Notes: generated by a model from the letters alone, not told the origin. Numbered from the stretch's first letter, positions 1,229-35,331 are shown. The stretch: 64,000 nucleotides of DNA from Candidatus Hadarchaeota archaeon (GCA_964621445.1 CAZUNO010000006.1:54011-118010); one strand, 5' to 3'. Numbers and translations: made by a program.

Positions 1229-2470
1229 TCAGCTCTCCGCCATCTTGGTGGCCTTAACGGTCCTGTACAATCTCCTCCTGACCATCAGGGACCAGAGGAT
1301 GAACCCGGATATGAAGAGCGTGGATACCGAGACCAGCCATTCCACAATGTAGACCCAGATTAGCGCCTGGTTCTTGACCTCGGTGGCCACCCGTTTTGCC
1401 TGGGGAAAGCGATCCAAGGCAGATGCCATGACTTCTTCGCACTTCGGGAAATCCTGTTCCATGTATTGTTCGATGGCCTGTTCGTAGAAATCCTCGATTT
1501 CCCATATTTCATCCCTGATTCTCTGGGTATTGGCACCGAATTTGTCCACGAAGTCCTTTACCGAATAGAGAACTGCGATACGGTTCCTGTACTCGATGAA
1601 ATACGCCTTAAGTCTGTGGAAAACCTCGACGTCCTCTATGAGATCCCTCTTGGTGGAGTACAGGAAGATGTTCACCAGCATGTCAGGGCCATAACGGTGT
1701 GAAGTTGGGCTCTTCGAGTATTGTATCAGGGGCCCGGGTACAAAGCCGCCACAGGTCAGGGTTCTCCCGCTCCCGTAATCCCAGGCTATGAGGAAGGGGA
1801 CCCTTCCCTTTCCGGGGAAGTTCCCGATTTGCCAGGCCATGGTCCGGGCCGTTTCCCGGGGTATCACCAAACGGGAGGCGGCCGTATACTGTTTCTCGAC
1901 ATCGAAGGGGATGAAGGGGGTGAGAACGGGATCCGGGAAATCGGGATCTATGACCACCTTAAAGGTGTTGGTTGCGCTTTCTCCTCCCGCCTTTTCGGCG
2001 ACGGCCGGAGCGTCATTTGGGAAAGCCTTTTGAGTCTGGGAGTTGGCCCAGGCTCCGTGGATCTGGGAAACTATGCTGAAAACGCTTCCATCATTTAGCC
2101 CTCCAGCCCCGCCCTCTATGGCATCGTGCATCCATTTATCCTGGGTGGAGCTGAAGAGGTTGTATTCGGTTGCGGTAAGGTAGAGGAAGTCGTATTGGCG
2201 AAGGTCCTGGTAACTTCGGGGGAAATAGAGCCTGATGAATTTCTTTGCATCCTCCCGGCTGACTATACCTGTATCCCTGGATGGCACGGTGATATATTCC
2301 ACTAATGGTTCGTTGTCCAGGTAAAACTGGGCGGCTCGGAGCTGTCCAAAATGCCCGGTTATCAGAATATTGATCTTCTCATTGGAGCCAACCCCACTGG
2401 GAACGAGGAGGTGGAGGGCTAGCACTGATAATAGTGTCAGGAAAAGGGCCCTTCTGCCCATGTTTTCCAT
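1229..2470 (-). CDS. Membrane-anchored surface protein, window paralog family copy 1
   Basis: N-terminal signal peptide; RLYFPRSY motif; helical stalk (DFVDKFGA); C-terminal WVYIVEW-TM-MVRRRLY shared with four other loci. Confidence 0.85.
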   Translation of the reverse strand: MENMGRRALFLTLLSVLALHLLVPSGVGSNEKINILITGHFGQLRAAQFYLDNEPLVEYITVPSRDTGIVSREDAKKFIRLYFPRSYQDLRQYDFLYLTATEYNLFSSTQDKWMHDAIEGGAGGLNDGSVFSIVSQIHGAWANSQTQKAFPNDAPAVAEKAGGESATNTFKVVIDPDFPDPVLTPFIPFDVEKQYTAASRLVIPRETARTMAWQIGNFPGKGRVPFLIAWDYGSGRTLTCGGFVPGPLIQYSKSPTSHRYGPDMLVNIFLYSTKRDLIEDVEVFHRLKAYFIEYRNRIAVLYSVKDFVDKFGANTQRIRDEIWEIEDFYEQAIEQYMEQDFPKCEEVMASALDRFPQAKRVATEVKNQALIWVYIVEWLVSVSTLFISGFILWSLMVRRRLYRTVKATKMAES

Positions 2471-2524
2471 TACTTCTCTATTGGCATATAAAGATTGTTG
2501 AACCTTGGATTTTCATAACTCAGA

Positions 2525-3676
2525 TCAGGCCGGCCGGAAAATGGAGACACCGGCCAGTTCCCTTCCGGCTTCCGCGATGTAAATGGTGCCGTCGGCAGAG
2601 ATTGCAGCTCCCTTGGCGCCCTCTATAGTATCGGTTTGTTCAATTGTGCGGAATCGGGTAACCAGCTTGCCGTTGTTGTTATACTTGTCGATGCTGGGCT
2701 GGTAGTTATTGCTATTATCCCTGGCCATGAGGTATATATTACCAAGATCATCCGAGGCCATGGCGTGGTACCTGTAGTGCCCGTGGGTGGCGTCCTTGGT
2801 GGAGCCGGGGTTGGCGAACTGGAAAAGAAAATTTCCCTTGGAATCGAATTTCTGGCACCTGCCGTCGAATTCAGCAACGAAGACATCTCCATTGGGATCG
2901 GTGCATATCCCATGGGGGGCCAGGAATTCACCATGTCCCGTTCCCCGAGCTCCCCAGCAACGGATTTGGGTTCCTTGCCCATCAAAGACGATGACCCTGT
3001 TGTTCCCTACATCTGCAACATGTACCAGTCCGTCCCTGGATATGGCCAGGGAGTGGGGTCTCATCATTTCACACCTGCCCTCCCCCTCCCCGCCCCAGCA
3101 CCTTAGAAATCTGCCACTGGAATCAAAGACCTTGACCTGGCAGAGGTTGCCGTCAATAACGTATACCTCCCCATTTTCATGGACCTTCAAATCTCTGGGT
3201 CCATCCAGGCCTCCCGGCTGGTTTTTCTTTCCCTTCCCGATCTCCCCCAGATATTTTCCAGAGGGCGAGAAACGGATAATCCTGGCGGTTAAAGGGTCGG
3301 CGACTAGAAGGTTCCCGGAGGACTCAAGGGCAATTCCGTGGGCTTCCGCCATCTCATCGGGGCCTTCTCCCTTTCTATTCCAGAAGGTCACGCATTCGTA
3401 AAGGGGGCCTGGGCCTTCCAGGATCACGGTGGCCCATGAACTCAGATGTTTTCCCTCCCCCACTCTAGCCTCTATCACATGCTCTCGCCTGGGGGGGTCG
3501 ACAGGCGCCCTGTATACGCCGTTGGAGTCTATGGTTCCTACCTGATGGTTACCATCCGGGATGCCGTCGACCGACCACTGCGCGGGTGAACTAGCAGGTT
3601 GGAGTGAAAATTTCTGTACCGAATCCGGCTTCAAACGTATCATGCCGGGCCGGATAATGGACCGAGAGAATCTCAT
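2525..3676 (-). CDS. NHL-repeat beta-propeller protein with N-terminal Ig-like domain
   Basis: Repeated PHGI/PHSL...DG.V.VAD..N.RV..FD..G units; N-terminal WSVDG...GTIDSNGVYRAP segment. Confidence 0.85.
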   Translation of the reverse strand: MRFSRSIIRPGMIRLKPDSVQKFSLQPASSPAQWSVDGIPDGNHQVGTIDSNGVYRAPVDPPRREHVIEARVGEGKHLSSWATVILEGPGPLYECVTFWNRKGEGPDEMAEAHGIALESSGNLLVADPLTARIIRFSPSGKYLGEIGKGKKNQPGGLDGPRDLKVHENGEVYVIDGNLCQVKVFDSSGRFLRCWGGEGEGRCEMMRPHSLAISRDGLVHVADVGNNRVIVFDGQGTQIRCWGARGTGHGEFLAPHGICTDPNGDVFVAEFDGRCQKFDSKGNFLFQFANPGSTKDATHGHYRYHAMASDDLGNIYLMARDNSNNYQPSIDKYNNNGKLVTRFRTIEQTDTIEGAKGAAISADGTIYIAEAGRELAGVSIFRPA

Positions 3677-3743
3677 GGGCAGGAAACCTGCAACCGGTCC
3701 TAATAAATGGGAACAGTTTTAGGATTTAGAGGAGTTTTGACAG

Positions 3744-6547: not shown

Positions 6548-6550
6548 GAA

Positions 6551-7213: not shown

Positions 7214-7227
7214 GCCCTAAGGGGCGA

Positions 7228-9681
7228 TCATAAGGGCCTTAGACGCAGGGAGTCGAGATCTATGGGTTTGGAGAAAAGCATATCGATGTCCAAAGACGAA
7301 GGCGGAATTTCAACTGTATGGGACGTCCACTCCTTTGATTGGGGCAACATGACTTGTTTGTCCCATCTTGAATTGGAGAGGGTGATGGTGAGCTTCTCCG
7401 GTGCCCTGTAACTCAGGGTCAACTCAACTCCGTTTTCGCTGAGCATTGATTGAATCTCTGCCACCGCTCCTGATTCTCCGTTTCTGTAGGTGATTGCTGG
7501 GCTGGAATCATCAGTTCTTTGAGCGCTCCAACCGCTTTTTAGGAATGCTCCAGGGCGATGTCGGAGAGGATTGGTATCCCAGGAGGTGCCGACATTGGTA
7601 AGGAAACTGGAAGGTGTTAGGAAGGCGTTGCGTATCTCGATTGAATTATCAAGGCTGAGAAGTATTTGGCTAGAGCCCATGTGGGGAGGTATTGTGAATG
7701 CGTGGATCGTCCAATTCTGAGATTCCTCCACCTTGGCGAATTGAACGGTAAAGGAGTTTGAAACGTCGATAACGGCTCCATTTTCTGATCTGTACTCCAT
7801 GGTAACCACCCATGGAATGCGCGTGTCCACATTATTGATGATGACCGGGTTATTTTTGCCGATCTGCCAGGTCCCGTTATTTCCCCTCCTCTCAGCGTAT
7901 ATGCCGGGGCGAGCCCTGGCCCGGGCATCGTCCTGAATTTCAAATATCGTCTCATCCGTATATATGCAGATGTCCGAGACCCAGGCGACCTCCGTGAGTT
8001 GTGCTTCCAGAATCTTGATCCTGGTGCCCGAAAGGGGCAATTTCCAGTGACCAACCTTCCAAGCTCCCTGGGCTTCGAGTCCCCCCACCTCCTTCCAGCC
8101 GGTCTTGGTTTTCATGGAAACCGTGCCGGGGTGATAGGTAAGATATCGGATGGCCAGGATGTAGTCCTTGGAGTTGTCAACCCCCTGCAGAGATATCGTT
8201 GCTCCGGGAGGTGCAAGCCGGCATGATTCATCATATACGGTGTCTACCGGCCCCCAGGAACCGGACTCCATCTTGATTGGCGAGTCCGATGTCCGGTTTG
8301 AAACATCCAGATGTATTATTGAGGGAACCGGGTGGTGTCTGTCCTTCACGAAACGTCCCAACACCTCATAGCTTTGGCGAACAACCGAGTTCTCACTGCG
8401 GAACATTTCTGCCGGGAAAACGTAGTAGGCAAGAGGTTTCCTCATGTAGAGGTGAAAAAGACCTCCGTCAAGGTAGTGGTAGAAGTTGTTTATTGCACTC
8501 ATATCTCCGGTTAAAAGACGTCCGGGGTCCAGTTCTATCTCTATGGATACCCCCAGATCCTTAGCAGCTTCCGCTATGCGATCCAAATCGCGTCTTTCCC
8601 TCCATTTACCGGTAACCCGGTCCCTGAAGGCATGGTTGGGCTGGATCCAGACGTAATCAAAAAGGAGATCTCCCGACCGGTAGTCCTCCAGATCTTCAAG
8701 GTTCTTTTCGGAATTGTAGGGTATCCAGTAGAGGTCGAGGTCCCGGGATTCCAGTTGACCTGAGAGAGCGTTAACTAGCTCCCTGTCCCCCTGAAACAGT
8801 TCCTCCCTTATCCAGTAGAAGCCTATGAGCTCCAGATTTCTGTATTGTTCCATCTTCCAACGTTTTATCACCTGATCGGTGAACCATTGACATGCACTGA
8901 GTCGAGCGTCAAGGTAGGGTTTCCCATTGGGTGATCGGAAGCTTATCCTTTCTTCGGAATCGTCTTCTGGATTGAAGTCCGTGACCCTGGGATCTGGATA
9001 GGGTATTGAGATAATTACTCCCTTCTTCGAGGGTCGGCCGAGCTCCTTTTCGGCGGCATATATCTCGCTATTTAAGGCATCCATTTGCTGTTCCTGGGCG
9101 AACAGCTTATCTATCCACCATTGCCATTCCTGATTTCGGGATTGACCTCGGAAGTTTGTCTTCGAGGCTGATGACAGGGAGAGGAAGAGATAGGAGTCAA
9201 AAAGCCATTCCCGGCTGCGGCCGTCCTTGTCAAGATAGGATACGTAGGGTGCCAGGTAATCCTGATCAACCGTGTATTTTCCCTTTTGACTGGGAACGAA
9301 AACCAGGGCGAGGTCGTTTATGCCCTCGAATGAAGTGGGGGAAGCTGGTGCCTGGCTCATTTTTACGGCGACCAGGGATAGAGTGAAGAGGAGCAGAAGG
9401 AGCGAAATTGCTAAGCTTCGTATGGAGACCGGCCTTGACCTATCGGCCCGGTTCAATGTCTGATGGAGGTTTTTCATTGGGTTTAGGGATAGACCAGTTT
9501 GGGAAGTGGAGTGCATGGTCTCGGTACAGTTCCTGCAAAGAACCTCCCGTGGGTGCGTTCCTGTAAAATCAAGGGAACCGCTCTGGTCTTCGAAGAGGGG
9601 ACCACCACAGCGTGTACAGTAGGTGAAACTGCGGTCCCCTAGCTGTCTTTCGGGAGATACCCACACGGATTTGCGTTCCAC
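7228..9681 (-). CDS. DUF4855 (glycoside-hydrolase-like) membrane protein with N-terminal zinc ribbon and C-terminal beta-sandwich repeats
   Basis: WLFDSYLFL, GFYWIRE, WIPY, QPN motifs; CTRC...CRNC before a TM helix. Confidence 0.72.
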   Translation of the reverse strand: MERKSVWVSPERQLGDRSFTYCTRCGGPLFEDQSGSLDFTGTHPREVLCRNCTETMHSTSQTGLSLNPMKNLHQTLNRADRSRPVSIRSLAISLLLLLFTLSLVAVKMSQAPASPTSFEGINDLALVFVPSQKGKYTVDQDYLAPYVSYLDKDGRSREWLFDSYLFLSLSSASKTNFRGQSRNQEWQWWIDKLFAQEQQMDALNSEIYAAEKELGRPSKKGVIISIPYPDPRVTDFNPEDDSEERISFRSPNGKPYLDARLSACQWFTDQVIKRWKMEQYRNLELIGFYWIREELFQGDRELVNALSGQLESRDLDLYWIPYNSEKNLEDLEDYRSGDLLFDYVWIQPNHAFRDRVTGKWRERRDLDRIAEAAKDLGVSIEIELDPGRLLTGDMSAINNFYHYLDGGLFHLYMRKPLAYYVFPAEMFRSENSVVRQSYEVLGRFVKDRHHPVPSIIHLDVSNRTSDSPIKMESGSWGPVDTVYDESCRLAPPGATISLQGVDNSKDYILAIRYLTYHPGTVSMKTKTGWKEVGGLEAQGAWKVGHWKLPLSGTRIKILEAQLTEVAWVSDICIYTDETIFEIQDDARARARPGIYAERRGNNGTWQIGKNNPVIINNVDTRIPWVVTMEYRSENGAVIDVSNSFTVQFAKVEESQNWTIHAFTIPPHMGSSQILLSLDNSIEIRNAFLTPSSFLTNVGTSWDTNPLRHRPGAFLKSGWSAQRTDDSSPAITYRNGESGAVAEIQSMLSENGVELTLSYRAPEKLTITLSNSRWDKQVMLPQSKEWTSHTVEIPPSSLDIDMLFSKPIDLDSLRLRPL

Positions 9682-9790: not shown

Positions 9791-11722
9791 ATGGTTTATT
9801 TGCTCGAACCCGATGGTCCTGGCCCTCTAGTTGAGGATGTCTGGCCCAGCCTTTTCTACTCCGAGGAACGTCTGCCTGAGATGAAGAGGAAGATCAACGA
9901 ACTGAAATGGGCCAAGAAAACATTTCGTAAAATGTTGAGGGAAGCGGATTCCCTCCTGGACGAGGAACCGGTTCTGGCAGATGGAAGGCCTGGATGGCGG
10001 CACGATTTCTACTCTCCAGTTTCCGCTGAACATCTCCTGTTCGATTCTCGGAGAAATGGAGGGTTCAAGGACCCGATCACGGGGACAAAATCTTATAGCC
10101 AGGATCAATACTCGGCTTGGGTTCTACTCCAGCACGAACGCACATATCGTATTATGCGAAGCCTTTCCTTCCTGTACAGGTTAACCGGGAAGGGACAATA
10201 CCTGTCCTGGGTCATCAAAGGTTTGGATGAGGCGGTTAGATTCTTTGACAATCCGCCAAGAAACCACGAGAGATACGGGGCAATTTACTTCCAACCCCTC
10301 TACGATGCACAGATTATGCTTCTCCTTTCCAATATATATCGCCTCGTCGGTGACCAATATCAGGAGGATCGGCGGGAATCCATAGAGAGGGTTTTTGAGA
10401 GTGGATCCGTCAGTCTCCTCAGGTATGTAAAAGGCGCCAGGGTGCATAATATTACCTGTTACGTTTCGGCGGCCATTGGCACCCTTGGAATAATTCTGGG
10501 GAGGGAGGACTGGATTGATATGGTCCTTTCGGAGAAGGATGTGGGGCTTAGAGGTCTTCTAGGGAAGGGATTGAGGAGAAGAGAGGAAAAGGAGCCGGAT
10601 GGATTCTGGTATGAGGGGACCACCTTCTACCACCTATATGCCATGTTCCCTCTCATATCCCTGTTTGAGATGGCTAAAGCCAAGGACATCGACGGTGAGG
10701 AGCTGGAAAATATGAAAAGGTCCTTGAGGGTCATGTTCTGGGCGTTAATTAGAATTGCTGGGCCGGACTTCGAACTGCCATCCCTGGGGGATCTGGGGTC
10801 TTCCACCATAAATGATCTCCGTCGGTGGCATCACCTTTACGAGTACGGGGCCGGAATGCTCGATTCCGGACTCTCCGGGTATCTTTCTGCCTTTCTTCAA
10901 AGCCAACAGGACCGTGGAATGTCGGCGTTGGCCTTTGGACCCGATGATCTATCGCCGCCGGCCTCCCCGGAGTTCAGGGGAGTGATGAAGGACAGCGGCC
11001 TTGCGGTTTTAGGATCCGACAGCAATGACGGAGATTTCCGCGTATTATTCAAACCTGGACCTCATGGAGGCGGACATGACCACCTGGATAAGCTCCAAGT
11101 GATCCTTAATACCTTTGGTAGTGGAATAGCCCCCGATATAGGTACATCCGGATACTCTCTAAGAAAATTCAAGAAATATTGCGTAAGCACTCTGGCCCAT
11201 AATACGCTTATGGTTGATGATGCCAACCAGGATAGGGTATCGGATTCCGATATCCGGTTGGGCAGGGATGGGTGCCCGGTCGGAATTGTACGTGACGCCT
11301 ACCCCGGAGTAGAGATGAAACGGGTTGTTTGCCTTGATCCGCCACACCTATATCTTGAGGACAGCTTAAGGTCAGAGGATAGCCACATCTACTCCTGGAT
11401 ATTTCACGCCAGGGGATCATTGGAGATGACTGGTGGGGAGAACAATGCTTCCCATAACTCGTCACTGCCCAAGGATGGAATTTTTTCATTTCTAACCGAA
11501 CGCCGTTCGTTTGGACCGCTGAGGAAGGCGGAGGCATTTTGGCACTCGTCAGAGGGCATCGATCTTAGTCTGAGGATGTCCTGGGATTCGGATTTCGAGG
11601 TGATCACCGCTAAAAGTCCAAATAATCCTCTAGATGGCTACCTGGGAACTCTGATAGCACGAGGGAGGGCCGAGAAAGTCGGTATCAAATCCGTATTCAC
11701 CGTTAGCAGGGACGGCAACTGA
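9791..11722 (+). CDS. Heparinase II/III family polysaccharide lyase (oligo-alginate-lyase-like), cytoplasmic
   Basis: HNI, DGFWYEG..YH.Y, HGGGHDHLDKL, PDIGTSGY, TLAHNTLMVD; no signal peptide. Confidence 0.85.
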   Translation: MVYLLEPDGPGPLVEDVWPSLFYSEERLPEMKRKINELKWAKKTFRKMLREADSLLDEEPVLADGRPGWRHDFYSPVSAEHLLFDSRRNGGFKDPITGTKSYSQDQYSAWVLLQHERTYRIMRSLSFLYRLTGKGQYLSWVIKGLDEAVRFFDNPPRNHERYGAIYFQPLYDAQIMLLLSNIYRLVGDQYQEDRRESIERVFESGSVSLLRYVKGARVHNITCYVSAAIGTLGIILGREDWIDMVLSEKDVGLRGLLGKGLRRREEKEPDGFWYEGTTFYHLYAMFPLISLFEMAKAKDIDGEELENMKRSLRVMFWALIRIAGPDFELPSLGDLGSSTINDLRRWHHLYEYGAGMLDSGLSGYLSAFLQSQQDRGMSALAFGPDDLSPPASPEFRGVMKDSGLAVLGSDSNDGDFRVLFKPGPHGGGHDHLDKLQVILNTFGSGIAPDIGTSGYSLRKFKKYCVSTLAHNTLMVDDANQDRVSDSDIRLGRDGCPVGIVRDAYPGVEMKRVVCLDPPHLYLEDSLRSEDSHIYSWIFHARGSLEMTGGENNASHNSSLPKDGIFSFLTERRSFGPLRKAEAFWHSSEGIDLSLRMSWDSDFEVITAKSPNNPLDGYLGTLIARGRAEKVGIKSVFTVSRDGN

Positions 11723-11752
11723 TTTATTAAGGAGAAGGGGGGTGAACCCACA

Positions 11753-23994: not shown

Positions 23995-25209
23995 CTAGTT
24001 TTCTTTCATTTTGGTCATCGATACCTCGCTGTAGAGGCGTCTTTTCACCATCAGGCTGTAAATCACGAATCCGGCCAGGATGGCCGTGCCGGTCACTGCG
24101 GTCCATTCGGTGAGGTAGACCCAGAACAGGGCATTTTCCTTCATCTCTATCGCTTTCTTATTAAGCTCCGAAAGCTTGTCTATCATGTCCTGAATCTCTT
24201 CGAGGGAGGCTTCATACTCCCCTTCCAGATAGAGGTCCCGAGCAATGGATCGACCATCATCTGCTTGCGCGATCTCCTCTTCGAGCTCGCCGGTGCTGGT
24301 GCCGAAGGAGTCAACAAAATCGATCATGGAATAAATCAGGTTCTTTTCGATGTTGTAATTATTGAAGGAATCTCTCAGATCGTGGATCAGGAATATATTG
24401 GATGGGAGATCCTTGCCCACCGAGTAGTAAATCATGTTTAGCATCAGATCACCGCCGTATTCGTTATCGTTCCTTCTCCTGAACCAGGACTCGTCCGCGT
24501 CTATTCCTATGACCCAGTTCTCTGCATCATTTTCCCCGTAAGTCCAGGAGATGACGAATTCCTCCTTTGGAACGTTTGAAAAACTCGGCTTAATGGCCCA
24601 GGCCCAGGTGGTGCTCCCGGCCTTGGGGTACATCGCTCTGGCCTTTTCGCCCTGGATTTTCTCGATGCCCAGCGGGACGAACATGGTAAACACCGGCGGG
24701 TTGTCCTCGACGACATCAACTTTGAAGGGAGCGAGCTCGGGTTTTTTGAAAATCTGGGTAAATTTTTGGGGGAATACCTCGGCAAGTGGCGATTGGGTCA
24801 GGGAATAATAGCCCTCGATATCCGGCCATAGAGTTAGCATTGAGGAGACGCCGGCGTCAACGGAATCCCTGAACCTGTTCATCTCCTTTCCGCTGAACCA
24901 TTCCATCCTTGGTTCAAGAAGAAGCAAAATATCATATTCATCCAACAGTCTTTCCAGGGTTCGCGGGGTATATATTCGAGTGATCTTCTTGGCCTCGGAA
25001 GCGCTGAGAAATCCGACATCGGTTGGTAGTTCCTGCCACTGTATGGCGAAATCCAGGGAAAGCCACCCGAGAATGGGGGATTCTCCGAAACTGGTATCAC
25101 CGATGCACAGTACTCCGATTCTATTTGTTGAGTCAAAGTGTTGCGCGCAGTTACCTGCGGTTAACATCACAGAGAAAATTAATACTAGCAGAGGATACCG
25201 GAAGTACAT
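23995..25209 (-). CDS. Membrane-anchored surface protein, paralog family copy 3
   Basis: Signal peptide; RIYTPRT; DFVDSFGT; WVYLTEW-TM-MVKRRLY. Confidence 0.85.
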   Translation of the reverse strand: MYFRYPLLVLIFSVMLTAGNCAQHFDSTNRIGVLCIGDTSFGESPILGWLSLDFAIQWQELPTDVGFLSASEAKKITRIYTPRTLERLLDEYDILLLLEPRMEWFSGKEMNRFRDSVDAGVSSMLTLWPDIEGYYSLTQSPLAEVFPQKFTQIFKKPELAPFKVDVVEDNPPVFTMFVPLGIEKIQGEKARAMYPKAGSTTWAWAIKPSFSNVPKEEFVISWTYGENDAENWVIGIDADESWFRRRNDNEYGGDLMLNMIYYSVGKDLPSNIFLIHDLRDSFNNYNIEKNLIYSMIDFVDSFGTSTGELEEEIAQADDGRSIARDLYLEGEYEASLEEIQDMIDKLSELNKKAIEMKENALFWVYLTEWTAVTGTAILAGFVIYSLMVKRRLYSEVSMTKMKEN

Positions 25210-25289: not shown

Positions 25290-26534
25290 TTACCTTCCAC
25301 GTGTTGTCTTAACCCTGCGATATAGCCGTCTTCTCACCATCAGGGTCCAGGTTAAAAAACCGGCCATAGTAATTATCCCGGTTACGGTAAGCCACTCCAC
25401 CATGTATACCCAGAGCAGTGTGCTTTTCTTCATCTCCACGGCCTTCGATTCCAGCCGTTTTATCATATTGAAAATCTGGCTCATCTCGGCTGATGAAATC
25501 TCAAATTTCTGTGAAAGGTAGTTCTCCTCGGCCTTGGATCGCATGGACTCGATTTCCCCGATTTCGTCCTGGAGCTTCCGACTGCTGGCTCCGAACTTCT
25601 CGATAAAATCCAGTAGAGAGTATAGGCTGGAGAATCTTAGTTTATATTCCGTAAATTGATTTCTCAATCGGTGGACCACCAGGGGGTCCTGGGGCAGCTC
25701 CCAGCGACAGCTATACCACGCTATGTTAACGAAAATGTCTAGGGAAAAACGCTGCTTTCCGTCTGCTCCCCACCAGGACCCCCACATTGGGCTGACGAAC
25801 TGGTCGCCCGTTGCCCAGATCCTCGAACTTTCGTCCCCGTATTCCCAGGATAAAAGGAGGGGGCAGTTGATAAACCCCATATTTGCAAAGGACTGGATAT
25901 CCCTGGCCCTGGCCCACACGGTGGAGCCTTCCTTCTCGTGCAAGGCCCGCGTGTAGCCAAAGGGCTTAACCCTCTCTATTCCCAATTCCTTATATGGCCG
26001 GATCACTGGAGGCAGGGATTTGTCATCATTGATCTCCAGGGTATAGGGTTCAATTCCTTTATTGACTCCCTCCAGGAATCTCTCCTGGTCGTGGGGAAAA
26101 GCCCGGGGAAGCTTGGAATTCATCCACGGGCCGTATACCTCCTCATTTTGGCTCTGGGTAAATGCGAGAGATCCCTTTCCCTCATCCATGAGCATCTGGT
26201 AGAGCCATTCCACGTGCCGATTCTCAAAGTGGCCAAGAACCGGCTGGTCGAAAAGGAAATAATCATACTCAAGGAGATCCTCATAGCTCCGGGGAAAATA
26301 TATCCTTATGAATCTACGTAACTCGCTATTGCTAAATATGGCAGCGTGAATGGATCTGGATACCACGAGAGTTGAGGTCATGGAGGGCTCTATGCTGGTA
26401 AAAGCTGAAATCGGGCTATAGCTCGGATCAACCTGTCCAATGGCCAGGGTCTCTATTCGAATCCCGGATGCAATAGTCGACGGAAGGAATAGGAATAGAA
26501 TTATGAAGGTTTGCAGACAGGTCCTGGAACTCAT
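25290..26534 (-). CDS. Membrane-anchored surface protein, paralog family copy 4
   Basis: Signal peptide; RIYFPRSY; DFIEKFGA; WVYMVEW-TM-MVRRRLY; tandem with copy 3. Confidence 0.85.
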   Translation of the reverse strand: MSSRTCLQTFIILFLFLPSTIASGIRIETLAIGQVDPSYSPISAFTSIEPSMTSTLVVSRSIHAAIFSNSELRRFIRIYFPRSYEDLLEYDYFLFDQPVLGHFENRHVEWLYQMLMDEGKGSLAFTQSQNEEVYGPWMNSKLPRAFPHDQERFLEGVNKGIEPYTLEINDDKSLPPVIRPYKELGIERVKPFGYTRALHEKEGSTVWARARDIQSFANMGFINCPLLLSWEYGDESSRIWATGDQFVSPMWGSWWGADGKQRFSLDIFVNIAWYSCRWELPQDPLVVHRLRNQFTEYKLRFSSLYSLLDFIEKFGASSRKLQDEIGEIESMRSKAEENYLSQKFEISSAEMSQIFNMIKRLESKAVEMKKSTLLWVYMVEWLTVTGIITMAGFLTWTLMVRRRLYRRVKTTRGR

Positions 26535-27902: not shown

Positions 27903-28134
27903 TTTTCATGCACCAACATGATGGCAAAGATGAGAGAGCAACAAGCGGTTGCTCCACTGGCTATTAATTGTCTTTGGGGGGATTGCTCCAAATCTAATCA
28001 ACTACGGATTGTAATGGACCTTCTTTCATGCGGGATTCAGATAGCCCAGGTTTCCTCTTCTATAAAGCAGGGAATATGGACTGCGTACGGGGAGGACAAG
28101 GGCGGAATCCATATAGAACAGGAGGGAAGCCCTT

Positions 28135-29709
28135 TCATTTCTTCCTGGAAAGGTAATCCTCCCAAGATATGGCAAATTGTTTCATCTTGGCCTCTCTGGT
28201 AGTCAGCCCGTTGGAGGTCACTATGCCGGAATTGATGATGCAGAATGACATCAGGGAACCATCCGGATAGGCCTGGTGAATGCCACATCTCCTGGTCCTC
28301 TGGAAATCTATATTGTTGGGGTCCTGGAAGTGCATGCTTCCCACAAACAACACCCTTCGGTTCCCGAATAGCTCCTTGATCGAGCTGTATGTCTTTTCCT
28401 CCATGATTTCCTCGATCGCGTCACGGAGAAACGGCTCGGTTTCCTCCAGGCTCTGCTTGAATTTCCTGTATTCCTGTAACACTTTGATCTTACCCACCGT
28501 GCCGAGGGAACCTTCCTCGGGAACTGTCTCGGCGATACTGGTTATGGCCTGGTATAGCTTGTCTATATCTATCAATTTTGGCAGTGGTTTCCACTCTCCT
28601 TTCGTTTCCACCAAAATCGTCGCCGCTCCGCAATGGGGGTGGACTGTGAAGGCCGGCAGGGGTTGCTGGGAGTAGTATTCCGCGATATCAAATAGAGGGG
28701 CGACGGAAGGAACTGGATACCAGTCCTCCCTATCGATAAATCCGCTTTCCTCCTCTATGCGAAGGATGAGATCCGGAATAGTGGCTCTCATCTTGACCCC
28801 GCCCCTTCCACCGAAGGAGATGGGCTGGAAGTTGACGCCCCTGATGACTTCCCCACGATTCATGGCGTATTCCAGGATGGGCCATACCTGATCGATATTG
28901 TTCATCCCTATGGTCGGAACCAGTACCGCGCAGGCATCAGCGGCATCTATATTGTCGATTGCCTGCTTCTTGATATTTATCAGGTCCTTTCCGGTCATTG
29001 TCTGGACTTTCTTGCTCTTTGTATCCGGGTCGTAGATTCCGTGTCCCCTGAAGCGGTCATAGACTCCGGGATTATTTTCTGTGTCGTATGATACGTAAAA
29101 GGTTACGGGGAGTAGATCCCTCAGGAAATCCTGATCTTGAGCCAATCTAACGGAGTTGGTATTGACCTCCACGTGGTTGAAATGCTCCCTGGCTCTCTTT
29201 GCTATCTCCGGCAGGTCATCCCTTACGGTTGGTTCCCCCCCGGTAAGCTGAACTGCTCGCCCTGCATCGGCCTCGATGGCCTGGAACGCATTGTCCAGTT
29301 GATCTAGCCTTGGCTCATAGATATAGTCCACGGCGCCGGCATTGGCAAAACAGGTCGGGCATCTGAGGTTGCATCGGTTTGTAACATCGACGATTCCGAG
29401 GCAAGTCCTGGTGAGGTGATAGCCACATAGTCCGGTTAGAGGTTCAACACAGTCCTGTGGGCACCGATAGTAATCCTTCTCTATCCTAGGGTTGGTTGGT
29501 CCTTTTCCTTCCCACTTGAATTTTTCGGCTCTTTTGTATAGGTCACTGTTGGACCAGTAGATATCCTCAAACTTGCCATGCTTTTCGCACTCTTTTTCAT
29601 AAAGTATCTTGCCGTCCGATTCCACTATCCTCGCCGGTATCACGTTGAGTTTTCCTTCCCTAACGCATTCGGGGCAAACACTTGTGGTCTTTTTCAGGAT
29701 GCTCCTCGT
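28135..29709 (-). CDS. tes: Tetraether lipid synthase (Tes/GDGT-MAS, MJ0619 family radical SAM)
   Basis: N-terminal TSVCPEC...KECEKHG, CPQDC...GLC..H, CNLRCPTC, HPHCG, MHFQD...RRCGIH..PDG...FC; frame extends upstream of the ORF-track start. Confidence 0.85.
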   Translation of the reverse strand, partial: TRSILKKTTSVCPECVREGKLNVIPARIVESDGKILYEKECEKHGKFEDIYWSNSDLYKRAEKFKWEGKGPTNPRIEKDYYRCPQDCVEPLTGLCGYHLTRTCLGIVDVTNRCNLRCPTCFANAGAVDYIYEPRLDQLDNAFQAIEADAGRAVQLTGGEPTVRDDLPEIAKRAREHFNHVEVNTNSVRLAQDQDFLRDLLPVTFYVSYDTENNPGVYDRFRGHGIYDPDTKSKKVQTMTGKDLINIKKQAIDNIDAADACAVLVPTIGMNNIDQVWPILEYAMNRGEVIRGVNFQPISFGGRGGVKMRATIPDLILRIEEESGFIDREDWYPVPSVAPLFDIAEYYSQQPLPAFTVHPHCGAATILVETKGEWKPLPKLIDIDKLYQAITSIAETVPEEGSLGTVGKIKVLQEYRKFKQSLEETEPFLRDAIEEIMEEKTYSSIKELFGNRRVLFVGSMHFQDPNNIDFQRTRRCGIHQAYPDGSLMSFCIINSGIVTSNGLTTREAKMKQFAISWEDYLSRKK

Positions 29710-29746
29710 GGTACCATCACCTTTGGAAGCTTGAGGGAGGTTATTG

Positions 29747-29754
29747 ATATATAA
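29747..29754 (-). promoter_or_regulatory. TATA box of tes
   Basis: TTATATAT on the minus strand about 38 nt upstream of the inferred start, with a GGTGA RBS between. Confidence 0.55.
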
Positions 29755-29957
29755 TATTGTTATGTTGACAATCTGGAGTATATTATACCTCTATATTGAG
29801 TCAGGAAAGTAATTAGAATTTAATCTGGTCACCAGGGTCCCGGCCATGATTCTGAGTTGGATTACAGAACATTGATATTTTTAGATGACCAAAGCTACCT
29901 GAGGTCCCTCTTTCCAGAAAGATTCATAGGCGGGTCCTGACTTATGGGCGGGTTGAA

Positions 29958-31058
29958 TTGAATCCAAGGGAAAGATTCCTGGAAATAATGAACTTCGGGC
30001 AAACTGACCGCATACCCCTTGTTGATCTCGAGGGTTTCATAGAGGAAACGATAAGGCTCTGGTGCGGGCAGGGATTTCCGGCCAACATGAAGGTAGAGGA
30101 TTACTTCGGATTTGAGATCAGGGGGATGTATCATGGGAGCATCGATATCGATTTTGGGCCCATTCCCAGATTTGTGGAGAAAACCCTTCAGGTTGATTCC
30201 AATTATGTGACCAGGATCAATCGCTTTGGATACACCGAGAGGCGTTCCAGGGAATACCCAATGCGTTCATATGGCTATACCTCATTTCCGATCACCAATC
30301 GTGAGGACTGGCAGGAGATGAAAGGAAGGTATGACCCGCACGACATCAGGAGATATCCAAAGGACTGGGGAAAGGAGCTATTCGAATACTGTGATGAATC
30401 TGAAACGCCGGTTGGGCTCGGCCTGGTTTGGGGTCCAGGTAGGGGACCCAAGGGTGGTTACGGTATGGGCGTGGAGCGTTTCCTTCGTACCTTTGTTAGG
30501 GACCCGGGAATGATCCACGACATGTTCAGTACCTATGCCGATTTCGTTATTGAGATTTCAAAGCCCATCCTGGAGAGAATTGATTTGGATTATGTCCTCA
30601 TTGGGGAGGATGGAATAGCCTACAAGAACGGGCCTCTGGTATCCCCGGATCTATATAGGGGGTTTTACCTGCCCTATGTCAAGAGGGTCCTCGACTTCTT
30701 CAAGGATCACGGCGTGGGGATACTTGGAGAATCTGCTAGCGGGGACATAGATCAACTGGTGCCCCTTTTCTTGGAGGCTGGATACAACCTTCTGTGCCCT
30801 CTGGAGAGCGCATGTGGGATGGATGCCTTGGAGTTGAGAAAGGAATATGGAAGGGACCTGCTGTTGATGGGGAATATCAGTCGGCAGTCCTTGATGGACG
30901 GCAAGGAGGCCGTAGAGGAGGAGTTCAACTCCAAGGTCCCTGATCTTGTGGAGTGGGGCGGGTTTATTCCAACCGTTGATGATATGATTCTACCGGATAT
31001 CTCATTTCAGAGCTATAAGCACTATGTGGATTTGGTAAAGAATTTCCAGGCGAAATGA
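29958..31058 (+). CDS. Uroporphyrinogen decarboxylase / MtaA-CmuA superfamily protein
   Basis: MNPRERF start, ED.IAYKNGPLVSP, CGMD...LR..YG..L...GNI, GGFIP..D. Confidence 0.8.
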   Translation: MNPRERFLEIMNFGQTDRIPLVDLEGFIEETIRLWCGQGFPANMKVEDYFGFEIRGMYHGSIDIDFGPIPRFVEKTLQVDSNYVTRINRFGYTERRSREYPMRSYGYTSFPITNREDWQEMKGRYDPHDIRRYPKDWGKELFEYCDESETPVGLGLVWGPGRGPKGGYGMGVERFLRTFVRDPGMIHDMFSTYADFVIEISKPILERIDLDYVLIGEDGIAYKNGPLVSPDLYRGFYLPYVKRVLDFFKDHGVGILGESASGDIDQLVPLFLEAGYNLLCPLESACGMDALELRKEYGRDLLLMGNISRQSLMDGKEAVEEEFNSKVPDLVEWGGFIPTVDDMILPDISFQSYKHYVDLVKNFQAK

Positions 31059-31202
31059 TATCCCCCTCAGGGTGGAAAGATGAGAAGCCCTCGTGAAAAT
31101 GTGAACACCCTAATTGATACTTGGGGTAGGGTCGGGCAGGGCCTTATGTCTAGCAGGGAGGTAATACGCATTTTACTCCTTTTCATGGAGTGATCTATGA
31201 TC

Positions 31203-32657
31203 CTAGATTAATTCGAGATCATATTTTGAGATCTGGGATACTTCAGCTAGCTCTGTGGTGTAATCTCCATATACCATTGCCAGGTGGTGTCCGTAGTCGA
31301 CCTGCCTGTGTATGAATTTCTCCGCATCCGGGATCTCAATACTCACGCTCAAGGAGCAGCCGATGCTATCAAATCCACCGCCATCGATTATCTGGCCCTT
31401 GGTTGCAAGAACTCTGGTTCCCTTGGGGTTGAATCTTGCCAAGGTGACCTCGCGTACTTTGTCCCTGGAGAAATCATACCTGATGGTAACTCCCCATTTT
31501 CCTTTGGTGAACGGTCTTATATTGAAGGGTAAATCGGGTTCCTTTAAACCCTTCATCTTCAAACCAGGAACATCGTGAGTGACTTGCAGGATGCTTCCCC
31601 CTTTATCCTTGAGAATTGGATTGCCCATAAACGCGGACTTTCTTGCGCAGTTCATCAGGACTATCATGGCCATTAACGCGTTTAGATCACCCTCACAGGA
31701 GGAGGGAATTCCTTGGTCCTTCAGTAAAGTGTGGGTTAGGCAGGGAGTGAATCTCTTTTTGGCAGGTAGCTTGCTGGTACATAGGGTGAAACATGGAATG
31801 GTGAAAGCATTACACTGGTGTTTCTGCAAAAGATGCTTTGCCGCTAGATAGGGAATGATTGATTTGATTATATCATCCTTCTCCATGAGAACTTCACCCG
31901 CATTTTCAATCAGGTCCCGAGCCATGCTTGCCGCCTTGTCTTGTTCCTCGTGCTCAACGCGGTTCATTTCCTGGAAGAAATCCTCGAAGGTAATAACCGA
32001 GAAATCAACTCCCAGGTTGCTTTTCAAGAGGTTGAGGTCGCCTATACTGCTGTAAACCCCTGCCGGGTGTTTTAGGGAGCTTCCGGAGACCATGCCCTCT
32101 TTGTAAACCACCAATACCCTTGTAATTGAGAGAGCCTTTCTCACCCTTAATGAGGAGACCAGCCTGTTGAGCTCCGGCCTGTCGAGTGGTGCGTAACCCT
32201 CCAGTTTCTGGTTTCTTAGGTAAGCGGCGATATCGACATTCGTGATTCCCCTTCCAACCATTGCTATCGGTTTTCCGTAGCGTTCGATTCCGGGCACCCT
32301 GTAGCTCAGCAGGAAGAGATCTATGTCTTCGAGTTCCTTTTCTATATCCTTGAATGCCTCCGGCGAAACGGTGAAGGCCTCGCCATACTCAATGTATTCG
32401 GTGTCCAGTACCCTGGCCTCCGGGCCCAGACTTCGGGCAAAACTAGTGAATTCTCCCAGGGACTTTTGGGCATTTATTCTCTCCGCTTCCGGTGATAGTT
32501 CCTCCGGCGTGCCAATTCTACACGGGCCCTCCTGGTCATCACTATGGATCATAGCTCCATATACGGGTTTAACTCCAACTTTCACGTTAATTGGAAATTT
32601 ATCTTCTCTTTCCATCAGTGATCCCATCCTTATAGGTTGAGCGGAGCTGCTATGCAT
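31203..32657 (-). CDS. L-fucose/L-arabinose isomerase-like protein
   Basis: NAFTIPCF, GIPSSCEGD, MGN, VTLARF, GHHLAMVYGDY. Confidence 0.78.
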   Translation of the reverse strand: MHSSSAQPIRMGSLMEREDKFPINVKVGVKPVYGAMIHSDDQEGPCRIGTPEELSPEAERINAQKSLGEFTSFARSLGPEARVLDTEYIEYGEAFTVSPEAFKDIEKELEDIDLFLLSYRVPGIERYGKPIAMVGRGITNVDIAAYLRNQKLEGYAPLDRPELNRLVSSLRVRKALSITRVLVVYKEGMVSGSSLKHPAGVYSSIGDLNLLKSNLGVDFSVITFEDFFQEMNRVEHEEQDKAASMARDLIENAGEVLMEKDDIIKSIIPYLAAKHLLQKHQCNAFTIPCFTLCTSKLPAKKRFTPCLTHTLLKDQGIPSSCEGDLNALMAMIVLMNCARKSAFMGNPILKDKGGSILQVTHDVPGLKMKGLKEPDLPFNIRPFTKGKWGVTIRYDFSRDKVREVTLARFNPKGTRVLATKGQIIDGGGFDSIGCSLSVSIEIPDAEKFIHRQVDYGHHLAMVYGDYTTELAEVSQISKYDLELI

Positions 32658-32758
32658 AAAAATGAACCTGGGTGATGGTTGGCTTATGGAAAAACGATCC
32701 GGAGCATCACGGAAGAATCATGAGAGATTAATAGCCAATATCGAGCTAGAATTAGAAT

Positions 32759-34000
32759 ATGAATAATTACTCATCACCATATCTAACTCAGGATTTCCCA
32801 GACATTGACCTCCAAGACTCCAAGCTAGGAGGAGAAGCTCAACCGGTCAGGGAGGTATATGCTGCGGCACATGTCATAGCTGGGGATGATTATCATTATG
32901 TAGAGGACCAGCCCATTACAAAATCCGATGTAAATTGGAAGGATTCTCTGGATTATAGAAAATACCTATGGGACCTCGGATTTGGTATTGCGGAGGCCAT
33001 GGATACGGCCCAGAGGGGAAGTGAAGTTGATTGGGATATTGCTTCGGAATTGTTGGATAGGACGCTGAAGGCCGCCAAAGGAGATAGAAACAGGAGGGTG
33101 ATTGGTGGGGTGGGGGCCGATCTTGTGGAAAACCCGGAGACATGCACCCTCAATGAGATAATTAACTCGTACGTGAAACAGGCTGAATTTATCCACCAAA
33201 GGGGAGGTGCGGCGATTATTTTCCCAAATGAGATCTTGCCGGATAGATACCCGAGGCCAGAACATTATGTCTCCCTAATTAACGGCATCGTGAATGAGGT
33301 GGAGGGGCCGATTTACCTTCACTGGCTGGGTAAGCAATTTAATCCCAGAATGGAACTTTATTGGGGTCATTCCGATTTATGGCAGGCTGCAAATGAAGTG
33401 GTATTACCTCTGATGGGGAGGCACTCCCAAAAGATAAAGGGAATCAAGCTCTCCACCCTTGATCAGGGATTCGAGGAATGGTTAAGAAAGAAGATAAGGA
33501 AGAATGGCCAGGTTATTCTGACCGGGGACGACCTTAATTTTTCCGCATTGATAGCTGGAAAATCGAGATATGAGGCCGTAGGAGAGTGGTCACCGGTTGA
33601 TGGTATTTCCTATCCGCTAGGCGATTACAGCCACGCTTTGCTGGGAATCTTTGACGGTATTGCCCCCCTGGCTGCAAGAGCTCTCCAATATTTGGCCACG
33701 GGAAATCGCGGCGAGTACCTGAAACTCATGATGGCTGGTCAAGCTCTTTCGAGACGCGTATTCTCCGTTGATAGGCCAGAGCTAACCAGGTTTTACAAGG
33801 TCGGTCTGGTCTTTCTATCCTATATCAATGGACACCAGGGGCATTTCAAGCTCCTTGGGGGCCTTGAAAAGAGGATGGAGTCTCAACACCCCGAGTACTT
33901 TCGTGAGTATCTGGAGGATATCTTCACTCTGGCAGGTAGGGTTGGTATAATTGATGACACTGAGACCGCCTACCGTCGCCTAAGAGCGGTACTTGACTAG
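32759..34000 (+). CDS. DUF993 family (DHDPS-like aldolase barrel) protein
   Basis: YAAAHV, GIAEAMDTAQRG, LHWLG..F, GIKLS.LD, TGDD.N, SHALLGIFD. Confidence 0.85.
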   Translation: MNNYSSPYLTQDFPDIDLQDSKLGGEAQPVREVYAAAHVIAGDDYHYVEDQPITKSDVNWKDSLDYRKYLWDLGFGIAEAMDTAQRGSEVDWDIASELLDRTLKAAKGDRNRRVIGGVGADLVENPETCTLNEIINSYVKQAEFIHQRGGAAIIFPNEILPDRYPRPEHYVSLINGIVNEVEGPIYLHWLGKQFNPRMELYWGHSDLWQAANEVVLPLMGRHSQKIKGIKLSTLDQGFEEWLRKKIRKNGQVILTGDDLNFSALIAGKSRYEAVGEWSPVDGISYPLGDYSHALLGIFDGIAPLAARALQYLATGNRGEYLKLMMAGQALSRRVFSVDRPELTRFYKVGLVFLSYINGHQGHFKLLGGLEKRMESQHPEYFREYLEDIFTLAGRVGIIDDTETAYRRLRAVLD

Positions 34001-34039
34001 AAAACTTTGGATAATTCACTAATGGAGCTAGAGCAGGTT

Positions 34040-35331
34040 CTATATCTTTCTGAGGTTGGTGGTGGAAATTTCCCGATAGAGTTTTCTTATCACCATAAGC
34101 TACCATAGCACGACACCGGAGACGAGGGCCCACCGAGGTAGTTATCAACCATTCGAGATGAATATCCAGATTAGGGCTCTGTCCTTTGCTTCTGTGGCTT
34201 CTTCCATGGCCTCGGTAACAATTTCCAGTGCCTGATCCATCCTACCCCTGGCAATTTCGTAGTCCAGTTGCAGGTAATCGGTTTTGGCTTCCGCATAGAG
34301 CTCTTTGGCTTCGATGACGGTTTGTTCCGGCTTGACGATATTCGCACCCATGCTTGATGCGAAGTCAAGGATGCTATGGAAGGTGGAAGTTGAGGCCATA
34401 TACTCCGCGAATTTTGGTTTCACCGTGTTTTTCTTTATGGCCTCTTCAAACCCTATGGTTTCTCGATCCTGGGTGTATAGAAATACGTTGAGGAACATTA
34501 ACTCCCACCATTCACCAGCCTCCTTCCAGTGCCTTCGATCGGTTCTGGGGTGCAAGGCAAATGACCACGTATTGGTGGTTTCAAAATTCCAGGAGATAAA
34601 GGCCGGTATGGTGGGCTCGGCCGGTGGGCCTTTTATACCCGAATCCAGGTGCGGGCTCCTTCCTTGGCGTATACGGGTCTTAAGTCAAAGTAGATGGTTT
34701 CGGTGAAGGCTTTGGTATTTTTGAAGGGGCTGAAAACCGGCGGCATGCCCGGTACCAGTTCCAGCTTTGCCAGAAAGGGCCAACGCCCCAGCCCTTTTCC
34801 CACCGATTTAATGAACCGATCATAGTCCATGGGAAGGGAATCCGAAATGGGACTGGTTGACCATGGTCTCTGGACGTCTCGGTAGTGGCTTCCGACATAA
34901 GCAACGGGAACCCTATCCTCTTCACCCATGAAATCCACCATCATTTCCTGCTGATTAAGTGTAAAGAAATCCAGGCGGGGGCAGTTGAATAGGAGCACGT
35001 CAAAACCGAGCAACTTGTCGTATGTCCTGGGAAAGTATGTCCTGCTCCATCTCAAAAGGAACTCGTCGGAGATATCCTGACCATACGCACGGCAGGGAAC
35101 CAGGTTTACATCCACGGCTGGCTCATCGTTCCCCAGCTGGTTTGGCCAACCCTGAATATCACCCAGTATCAGGGTGTTAAATACTTCTTCCTGGCCAAGG
35201 CTAAGGGGAAAAAGCGATAATAGCAAAGTTAAAAGGAGTATTGTTCGTAGTGCAACTTGCAAGATGCAAAAAAGGGAATTTGAGGGCATAAGACTATAAT
35301 TGGGCCATATTCGGCTTAGGCCAAAGGACAT
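34040..35331 (-). pseudogene. Decayed copy 5 of the surface-protein paralog family
   Basis: RTYFPRTY, PAFISW, DFASSMGA and WIFI/EWL...LW*LMVIRKLYRE recovered across frameshifts near 34639, 34155 and 34130 and an in-frame TAG at 34100-34102. Confidence 0.8.

Follow-up and report, generated by a model that had tools for sequence, protein, structure and literature searches.

A 64,000-nucleotide stretch of a genome labelled Candidatus Hadarchaeota archaeon (GCA_964621445.1, CAZUNO010000006.1:54011-118010; hereafter the window) carries five copies of a gene family whose products combine very divergent heads with a nearly constant membrane anchor. The family is restricted to, and hugely expanded in, a lineage of Theionarchaea-like Methanobacteriota, and its head, judged mainly by fold, belongs as a distant member to the PF07090-type branch of GATase1-like proteins (GATase, glutamine amidotransferase) and is without a conserved catalytic triad. 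The stalk, the anchor, the expansion and the linkage to two further membrane protein families (B and C types, see below) appear to be undescribed; the head itself belongs to a known, uncharacterised domain family. No published description of the family was found among the papers listed for PF07090/DUF1355/GATase1_like and for Theionarchaea, and a preprint (10.1101/2020.07.16.207365) does not mention it in the portion covered here, outside of which lie supplementary family tables that might list it.

Five copies of one architecture in the window

Copy 1 (1229-2470, minus strand; P0001, 413 amino acids (aa)), which serves as reference for residue numbering, copy 2 (11753-12946, plus strand; P0002, 397 aa, TTG start), copy 3 (23995-25209, minus strand; P0003, 404 aa) and copy 4 (25290-26534, minus strand; P0004, 414 aa) are intact, alignable end to end and pairwise 27-33% identical, with copies 3 and 4 forming a tandem pair. 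Copy 5 (34049-35331, minus strand) is a pseudogene. The N-terminal part of its head is found in one frame (34630-35181, within an open reading frame (ORF) at 34633-35331), a frameshift is located near 34630, and the remainder (34049-34630) continues in another frame with stop codons within the anchor. An intact ortholog of copy 5 is present in one metagenome-assembled genome (MAG), with 51% identity to the N-terminal part of the copy 5 head. When a profile of the four intact copies was run against 827 six-frame ORFs of the window (each at least 40 aa long), it matched six pieces, i.e. the four genes (E 1e-170 to 1e-193; 4e-193 for copy 1) and two pieces of copy 5 (E 2e-24 and 7e-24). The next match in the window reached only E = 5, so this set of genes is not due to chance.

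An earlier note on this DNA, made from the sequence alone, had described five loci of one architecture in an unrecognised family, and translations and profile scan agree with it, the decayed fifth locus being the pseudogene. All motifs that it named, RxYxPR in the head, DFxxxFG in the stalk and LxWVYxxEW-TM-LMVRRRLYxxVxxT in the tail (TM, transmembrane segment), were found in the translations. The head motif appears as RLYFPRS, RIYMPRS, RIYTPRT, RIYFPRS and RTYFPRT, the stalk motif as DFVDKFG, SFVEDFG, DFVDSFG and DFIEKFG, and the tail motif as L(I/L/F)WVYxxEW followed by the TM segment and LM(V/I)(R/K)RRLY..V..T. Pfam and NCBIfam returned nothing below E 0.03 for the five window proteins, and neither these databases nor homolog annotations provided a full-length match to a characterised family.

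A structural model of copy 1 (AlphaFold2 with a 53-sequence alignment; pLDDT 92.4, pTM 0.85) helped to delimit four parts of the protein. The signal-peptide-like segment (residues 1-28; 2387-2470, minus strand) consists of basic residues, a hydrophobic helix and small residues, and is modelled as a helix at residues 4-22. It is followed by an alpha/beta head of the GATase1-like, PF07090-type kind (residues 29-272; 1655-2386, minus strand), which is supported by the model, Foldseek and conservation, the model placing the domain at residues 33-272. The helical stalk (residues 273-365; 1376-1654, minus strand), delimited by model and conservation, is composed of three helices (281-310, 316-337 and 341-353) and conserved in a DFxxKFGA turn (F307, F311, G312, A313) and at Y336. 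Finally, conservation, sequence and model define the constant anchor (residues 366-413; 1232-1375, minus strand), which reads, in order, as a juxtamembrane K..ALxWVYxxEW, 19 uncharged TM residues and LMVRRRLYRxVxxT(K/R). In the model, one continuous helix (355-412) extends from the stalk across the membrane into the basic tail.

The 19 uncharged residues separate W378 from R398, and the RRR cluster ends the run. The same note had placed a conserved Glu inside the TM segment. As this residue, E377, precedes the uncharged run that ends at RRR, it would sit at the outer TM edge and not in the core, within an aromatic belt formed by W372, Y374 and W378. Likewise, the RRR cluster after the TM segment and the secretion-like N-terminus together suggest that the head lies outside the cell. 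A homodimer prediction with two full-length P0001 chains and the family alignment, run without controls, returned a score of 0.00 and a mark of 0.42, and speaks neither for nor against self-association.

Constant anchor and divergent heads

Conservation is distributed very unevenly along the protein. Over 246 full-length members, the mean top-residue frequency is lowest in the signal peptide (0.21), amounts to 0.41 in the head and 0.42 in the stalk, and reaches 0.73 in the juxtamembrane motif preceding the TM segment, 0.59 in the TM segment and 0.72 in the tail. In 7140 pairwise comparisons of 120 near-full-length copies from three MAGs (see below) and the window, with region borders approximate to a few residues, median identity was 0.23 for the head, 0.27 for the stalk and 0.50 for the anchor, and anchor identity was higher than head identity in 7039 of the 7140 pairs. 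The tail is thus far more conserved than the head, as had been claimed.

Within the head, near-invariant residues among the 246 members are G39, P55, R80, Y82, P84, R85, G121, W141 and P151, which include the head motif of copy 1 (R80-x-Y82-x-P84-R85). No Cys has a top-residue frequency of 0.6 or more in this set. S132 (0.68), E192 (0.76) and H285 (0.84) are conserved to some degree, none of them being invariant, and further fairly conserved polar residues of head and stalk are D263 (0.83), N267 (0.87) and D280 (0.89). A search for specificity-determining positions across orthogroup-like clusters gave none at the thresholds used; the single-linkage clusters were too lumped, and nothing is drawn from it.

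A GATase1-like head without a catalytic triad

Foldseek comparisons of the copy 1 model gave three best matches, 2gk3 (STM3548; E 1.5e-8), 3soz (STM1381; E 1.2e-7) and 3rht (E 4e-7), with TM-scores of 0.62-0.68 when normalised to the target. Weaker matches comprised the GH42 middle domain and ThuA-like proteins (E 2e-5 to 4e-4), the N-terminal domain of IFT52 (E 2e-4) and catalytic GATase domains, including CTP synthase glutaminase, HTS and PurQ. A 410-aa chain of the human oligosaccharyltransferase (OST; 6s7t_G / 8b6l_N), which we take to be OST48 from its length, was also weakly matched (E about 6e-4, TM-score 0.33-0.34). Sequence profiles point in the same direction, as a search of PDB sequences with the family profile gave weak matches to 3rht_A (E 0.002; titled “(GATase1)-like protein”) and 2gk3_A (E 0.14). 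PF07090 (GATase1_like) was weakly matched by 6 of 53 family members (best E 1.1e-4); none of the four intact copies in the window reached E 1 with this model. Among the Atlas clusters, those closest to the family come from archaea (Methanobacteriota), and 12-47% of the proteins in them have PF07090.

The three solved PF07090 proteins, STM3548, STM1381 and 3rht from Planctomyces limnophilus, are thus the best fold matches and the source of the only sequence-profile signal, with FP and LP motifs that align with the family. They are uncharacterised, and their PDB titles contain no functional name. Unlike the family, they are soluble (two have “cytoplasmic” in their titles), about 250 aa long and devoid of signal peptide, stalk and anchor, and their sequence identity to the family is 13-15%. 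ThuA-like proteins and the middle (trimerisation) domain of GH42 beta-galactosidases are also non-catalytic and GATase1-like, but are cytoplasmic or part of larger enzymes and possess neither stalk nor anchor; the ThuA Pfam model was matched by a single member out of 53 (E 0.13).

The Cys nucleophile, His and Glu that make up the triad of catalytic class I GATases were not found as a conserved set in the 246 members. PF00117 did not match any of the five window proteins at E 1 or better and is absent from the 25 families listed for the 53 members (E 10 or better), and true GATases encoded in the same window score 2e-20 and 8e-51. Further, the GATase, Peptidase_C26, S51 and DJ-1 Pfam models remained without a match among the 53 members at E 10 or better. 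The suggestion of a class I GATase-like head without triad is therefore supported by fold matches, the 3rht_A profile match, the six PF07090 matches and the lack of a conserved Cys.

An old expansion in one archaeal lineage

In a word-indexed protein search that scored 7,999 candidates, 256 proteins reached E 1e-3 or better. A precomputed Pfam domain is absent from all 120 homologs listed, their names are “hypothetical protein” and, in one case, “uncharacterized membrane protein”, and two NCBI records among them originate from “Theionarchaea archaeon”. An exhaustive search of 1.84 billion cluster representatives gave 642 matches at E 1e-3 or better, 468 at 1e-10 and 292 at 1e-30; most of the 150 representatives listed are about 400 aa long and match end to end, and about 30 are shorter pieces. 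In species-representative genomes, 226 stretches fit the anchor patterns, 219 of which were confirmed. We analysed the genomic loci of the best 80 of these 219 matches (75 loci, 946,362 bases), all of which derive from three assemblies labelled “uncultured Thermococci archaeon” and “Candidatus Hadarchaeota archaeon”. These loci contain 130 unique ORFs with head, stalk and tail, i.e. at least 67, 38 and 25 per assembly, numbers that are lower bounds because only part of each genome is covered. The expectation of many copies genome-wide thus holds for three related MAGs, within 0.95 Mb of sequence.

In a maximum-likelihood tree of 120 copies, paralogs fall into deep clades, many with members from several assemblies. 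The window copies are 45-61% identical to their orthologs and about 30% to their paralogs; copy 1 has orthologs in three MAGs (49-55% identity) and copy 2 has two (55% and 45%). Moreover, the block at 11.7-25.2 kb is syntenic with contigs of two assemblies (loci L022 and L044) in the order copy 2, HisH, HisF, CarA, XPF-type nuclease, glutamate dehydrogenase, aldo-keto reductase with a 4Fe-4S domain and copy 3. Family genes are hence embedded in stable housekeeping neighbourhoods, as seen around copies 2 and 3. The deep orthogroups and the conserved gene order point to long-term, separately conserved functions of the heads and argue that the paralogs are old orthogroups, not rapidly varying antigens.

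Heterogeneous gene neighbourhoods

Two copies in the window are located next to sugar enzymes, as had been noted before: copy 2 begins 30 bp past a same-strand heparinase II/III-like gene (9791-11722, itself divergent from a DUF4855 gene), and copy 5 has a GH78 gene as its divergent neighbour. Copy 4 lies downstream of a DegT-type aminotransferase gene. The idea that carbohydrate-active enzymes are enriched near the family was not supported when Pfam scans of 150 of the 207 immediate neighbours were compared with controls (140 of 196 genes located five or six positions away); the 8 neighbours in the window were scanned as well. Glycan-related genes made up 20 of 150 neighbours and 12 of 140 controls (Fisher p 0.26), and 9 of 150 versus 7 of 140 (p 0.80) in a strict class of glycoside hydrolases (GH), polysaccharide lyases, sulfatases and GxGYxYP only, the classing having been done manually. 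The neighbours are diverse, with URO-D-like proteins, sulfatases, GH38, GH78, GH32/130, lyases, GxGYxYP proteins, FG-GAP propellers, xylose-isomerase-like barrels, cupins, cyclases, flavoproteins, housekeeping genes and many unannotated ORFs. Neighbours from outside the family lie on the same strand in 105 cases and on the opposite one in 121, an about random distribution, and 32 neighbour relations are between family genes.

Neither a recurrent transporter nor any ABC transporter gene was found among the 150 neighbours scanned. The heparinase-like and GH78 proteins of the window lack an N-terminal hydrophobic segment and, being without a signal peptide, are probably cytoplasmic. The fetched loci, including those with copy 2 orthologs (one of them cut off by the end of its contig), contained no homolog of the heparinase-like gene at E 1e-20 or better and a coverage of 60% or more. 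Genes for polysaccharide degradation abound in these genomes, but the family is not specifically tied to them.

Several other genes next to the family or its neighbours were recorded. A PHP / CehA-McbA-type metallohydrolase gene (12994-13884, minus strand) is convergent with copy 2 at a distance of 47 bp; 4 of 5 homologs in the loci adjoin family genes, too few to judge. URO-D-like (uroporphyrinogen decarboxylase / methyltransferase-like) paralogs are expanded, with one gene in the window (29958-31058, plus strand) and 16 in the loci, and 6 of these 17 adjoin family genes, close to the 26% baseline. Close to the window gene lies one for a radical SAM protein that carries an HMPTM-type zinc ribbon (28135-29643). 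The DUF4855 gene mentioned above (7228-9681, minus strand) encodes an 817-aa protein (E 2e-64) with a Cys-rich N-terminus (CxxC) and a predicted TM segment near residue 83, which may be a membrane-anchored extracellular glycan-related protein.

Linked membrane proteins of the B and C types

Clustering of 947 unique genes of the loci and the window, with inspection of about 25 clusters, revealed one protein type that is often encoded beside the family. B-type proteins have about 260-300 aa and an N-terminal TM anchor with a near-invariant Gly and Ser. The window representative (P0271; 23132-23977, plus strand; 281 aa) combines such an anchor (RRxIG...S/T) with a domain of about 250 aa of no known family, and its gene is convergent with copy 3 across a gap of 17 bp. 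Homologs are present in thirteen loci (L001, L004, L009, L010, L012, L020, L030, L036, L043, L047, L059, L064 and L075) and the window. Of the 16 B genes, 12 are immediate neighbours of a family gene, where the baseline is 207 of 801 (p 4.5e-5 in a hypergeometric test, without correction for the about 25 clusters). In seven cases, the B gene is located 3' of a family gene on the same strand, abutting or overlapping it with raw gaps of -127 to +32 bp, lengths that depend on uncurated starts from a simple ORF caller. The B type had no match in Pfam, NCBIfam or PADLOC, and its profile gave nothing below E 0.2 against PDB sequences. An Atlas search with P0271 reached scores of at most 0.86, with a YycI-like cluster as a lead only.

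The B gene of the window is in turn accompanied by a C-type gene (P0270; 22019-22996, minus strand; 325 aa), whose product has a signal peptide and an alpha/beta domain, followed by a helix and a C-terminal TM segment with a different tail. This second type has 8 members in the loci and the window (in L001, L004, L009 with two, L010, L012 and L043) and 15 homologs in the protein collection. All 8 C genes adjoin a B gene, six of them directly downstream of B on the same strand and two divergently, including the window pair, and in one locus (L012, on the CAZJVP assembly) genes of the main family (A type), B and C are consecutive on one strand. The P0270 model is weak (pLDDT 62), and Foldseek found nothing at E 1e-3 or better, the best matches being ThuA-like proteins, STM1381 and STM3548 at 1e-3 to 4e-3. 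From this model, the C type may be a second anchored GATase1-like family. Alignment with hhalign of P0270, alone or with its own alignment, against the family alignment covered the TM segment only (probabilities of 0.8% and 10%), which provides no sequence relationship between both types. Given how tightly these genes are coupled, B-type proteins may form complexes with anchored alpha/beta partners of the A or C type.

Other genes of the window

A gene at 45764-46297 (minus strand) encodes a 177-aa homolog of RNA polymerase subunit H/Rpb5 (Rpb5 C-terminal domain, E 7e-28). Archaeal subunit H usually consists of the C-terminal domain only. The N-terminal part of the homolog is weakly restriction-endonuclease-like, with Mrr_cat at E 2.6e-5 (above the cut-off) and NA-iREase1 at E 1.2e-5 (just below). 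A MoxR-type AAA ATPase (AAA_5/AAA_3), followed by a vWA/DUF58-like protein, is encoded at 46368-48271 (minus strand). In bacteria, MoxR-vWA/DUF58 pairs accompany GATase1_like/GIFT membrane proteins; the pair of the window is 11 kb from the nearest family copy, and no such pair was seen next to a copy in the loci. Close to copy 5, two adjoining genes (31203-32657, minus strand, and 32759-34000, plus strand) encode a 484-aa protein that matches sulfoquinovose isomerase, though falling far short of the cut-off (E 8e-16), and a DUF993 protein (E 7e-97). Judging from these matches, both proteins and the GH78 rhamnosidase could possibly form a cluster for the utilisation of sugar acids or deoxy-sugars.

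Possible roles of heads and anchor

We tentatively favour a reading in which non-catalytic heads, serving in binding or as scaffolds, are docked by the constant anchor, a plausible one that we stop short of calling probable. By their architecture, the family members are type I membrane proteins: each combines a secretion signal with a GATase1-like (PF07090 / GIFT-like) ectodomain that has no conserved nucleophile, three stalk helices and a near-invariant unit of juxtamembrane motif, TM segment and basic tail. The heads would serve as binding or scaffold modules, each with a different specificity, while the anchor would dock every paralog in the same membrane context, be it a common partner or assembly or a common biogenesis step. 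For a subset, this partner would probably be the adjacent, N-terminally anchored B-type protein, as the B gene often abuts or overlaps the family gene. The ligands would most plausibly be glycans or glycan-processing partners, given the many sulfatases, glycoside hydrolases and lyases of these organisms and the sugar binding proposed for GIFT-type domains; this is the weakest step.

By analogy, Wbp1/OST48 would be the nearest precedent for a GIFT-fold ectodomain held in a membrane machine. Wbp1/OST48 is described as having a GIFT domain and one TM helix that lies amid those of Ost2 and Swp1; sugar binding is proposed for GIFT domains, and a role in the recruitment of sugar or lipid-linked oligosaccharide for Wbp1/OST48 (PMC7226087). 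Judged from sequence, the family appears to share with OST48/Wbp1 a signal peptide, a GATase1/GIFT-fold domain that is lumenal there and would be extracellular here, one C-terminal TM segment and a short basic cytosolic tail. Unlike the family, OST48 contains a second lumenal domain in place of the helical stalk and is encoded by a single-copy gene. No link to the archaeal OST (AglB) was seen in the analysed data. GldG is another membrane-anchored GIFT-type accessory of a membrane machine; GldG / ABC_transp_aux (PF09822), IFT52-N and archaeal DUF4350 belong to the same fold class, but the family gave no Pfam match to their models, and their anchor topology differs. Atlas clusters of archaeal DUF4350/IFT52_GIFT (0.83) and ABC_transp_aux (0.76) are leads only.

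Several observations weigh against heads that bind ligands and dock on a common partner. The likeness to OST48, IFT52 and GldG is at the level of fold only (TM-score about 0.33), and the DDOST_48kD, IFT52_GIFT and ABC_transp_aux models did not match any of the 53 members at E 10 or better. The neighbours are heterogeneous, no partner recurs across the whole family among the 150 scanned, and about 90% of the family genes are without an adjacent B gene. Glycan-related genes show no significant enrichment among the neighbours. Further, the high conservation of TM segment and tail could be explained equally well by a sorting or insertion signal, and Ser/His-based activity might occur in some subfamilies. 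A more ambitious version of the binding and docking reading, which we regard as doubtful, would combine A, B and C into a new archaeal surface system, in which dozens of specificity-bearing GATase1/GIFT-fold heads per cell connect to a common membrane partner by way of the invariant juxtamembrane, TM and tail unit. Such a system would be the prokaryotic equivalent of GIFT-domain presentation on membrane machines by OST48 or GldG, and organisms living on complex sulfated polysaccharides would recognise or hand over many different substrates with it.

Other explanations of the constant anchor and of the head have to be considered. The C-terminal segment might be a new sorting signal that is cleaved by an archaeosortase- or rhombosortase-like enzyme, leaving the heads attached to the envelope or released. 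This would fit the tripartite layout at the extreme C-terminus (WVYxxEW, 19 uncharged residues, RRR), the position of the anchor as the most conserved part of the protein and the high copy number per genome, which is typical of sortase substrates; PGF-CTERM-type archaeosortase signals likewise consist of a motif, a TM segment and a basic cluster and occur on many proteins per genome. The family differs from PGF-CTERM relatives, however, in the motif itself, in its confinement to a single head family in the loci and in a longer conserved tail, with conserved residues extending 8-10 positions beyond the basic cluster (Y402, V405, T408). A tail profile found 144 ORFs in the 75 loci and the window, all belonging to this family or being fragments of it (137 with head, stalk and tail, 7 short pieces without a head), a test that is biased because the loci were chosen through the family itself. 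A word-based search, which is weak evidence, revealed no protein of 724-2065 aa with the anchor. No NCBIfam CTERM model fits either, the best being PVV_CTERM for one of five proteins (E 0.075, score 12.8 against a cut-off of 27 bits), and no exosortase-family Pfam match occurred among the 150 neighbours and 140 background genes scanned. As the anchor moreover continues the conserved stalk as a single modelled helix, the sorting signal is weakened as an explanation, mainly by its occurrence on this head only in the fetched loci and by the lack of a CTERM match, and we consider it improbable. We also consider it unlikely that the heads are extracellular enzymes, e.g. GATase1-like hydrolases with a Ser or other nucleophile, a His and an acid, whose paralogs differ in substrate. 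Many hydrolases and transferases belong to the superfamily, with CTP synthase glutaminase, HTS and PurQ among the weaker fold matches, several polar residues are fairly conserved (S132, E192, D263, N267, D280, H285), and the paralogs look subfunctionalised into old orthogroups. On the other hand, there is no conserved Cys, the candidate Ser, His and Glu are not invariant, the closest structural relatives are without a functional name, and the models of catalytic GATases, Peptidase_C26, S51 and DJ-1 remained without a match. In addition, the RxYxPR motif precedes the strand at 95-99, which, to go by the secondary structure of the model, would not be the usual active-site edge of GATase1 proteins.

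The position of copies 2 and 5 beside heparinase-like and GH78 genes, the sulfatases, GH38, GH78, GH32/130, lyases and GxGYxYP proteins adjacent to copies elsewhere, and the sugar binding proposed for GIFT-type domains (PMC7226087) might indicate an archaeal analogue of SusD, as the earlier note had envisaged, with each copy binding a polysaccharide processed by the neighbouring enzymes. Points against this are the non-significant glycan enrichment in both classes, the about random gene orientation, the absence of signal peptides from both window enzymes, the lack of heparinase-like homologs in the fetched loci and the location of copies 2 and 3 within a conserved housekeeping block (HisH/F, CarA, XPF, GDH). 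SusD, moreover, has an all-helical TPR-like fold unrelated to the alpha/beta head and is paired with a SusC transporter gene, whereas the family has no recurrent transporter neighbour among the 150 genes scanned, and SusD-type glycan capture is accordingly very unlikely in our view. Least credible is a variable surface coat, in which the heads would diversify quickly on a fixed anchor to evade viruses or other antagonists. Very divergent heads (median identity 23%) on a constant anchor and dozens of copies with tandem pairs and an occasional pseudogene are what such a coat might look like, but many of the deep clades have one member per genome at about 50-60% identity and a conserved gene order, which implies long-term purifying selection on each head. 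PADLOC models likewise gave 0 matches at E 0.01 or better for the four intact copies, P0270 and P0271.

Implications

If each copy measures about 1.2 kb, the 67 copies found in one uncultured archaeon would correspond to roughly 80 kb of coding sequence. This would rank among the largest paralogous families that such a genome could carry, and the family has neither a name nor a Pfam model of its own. A constant anchor, ancient and diverse heads and, for a subset, a tightly linked second membrane protein together point to a specific task of the anchor and to distinct roles that the heads have long kept. Identification of partner and ligands would account for much of this lineage's surface proteome. 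Further, it would give a function to the PF07090 / GIFT-like fold, which is uncharacterised in bacteria and loosely understood in eukaryotic OST48 and IFT52.

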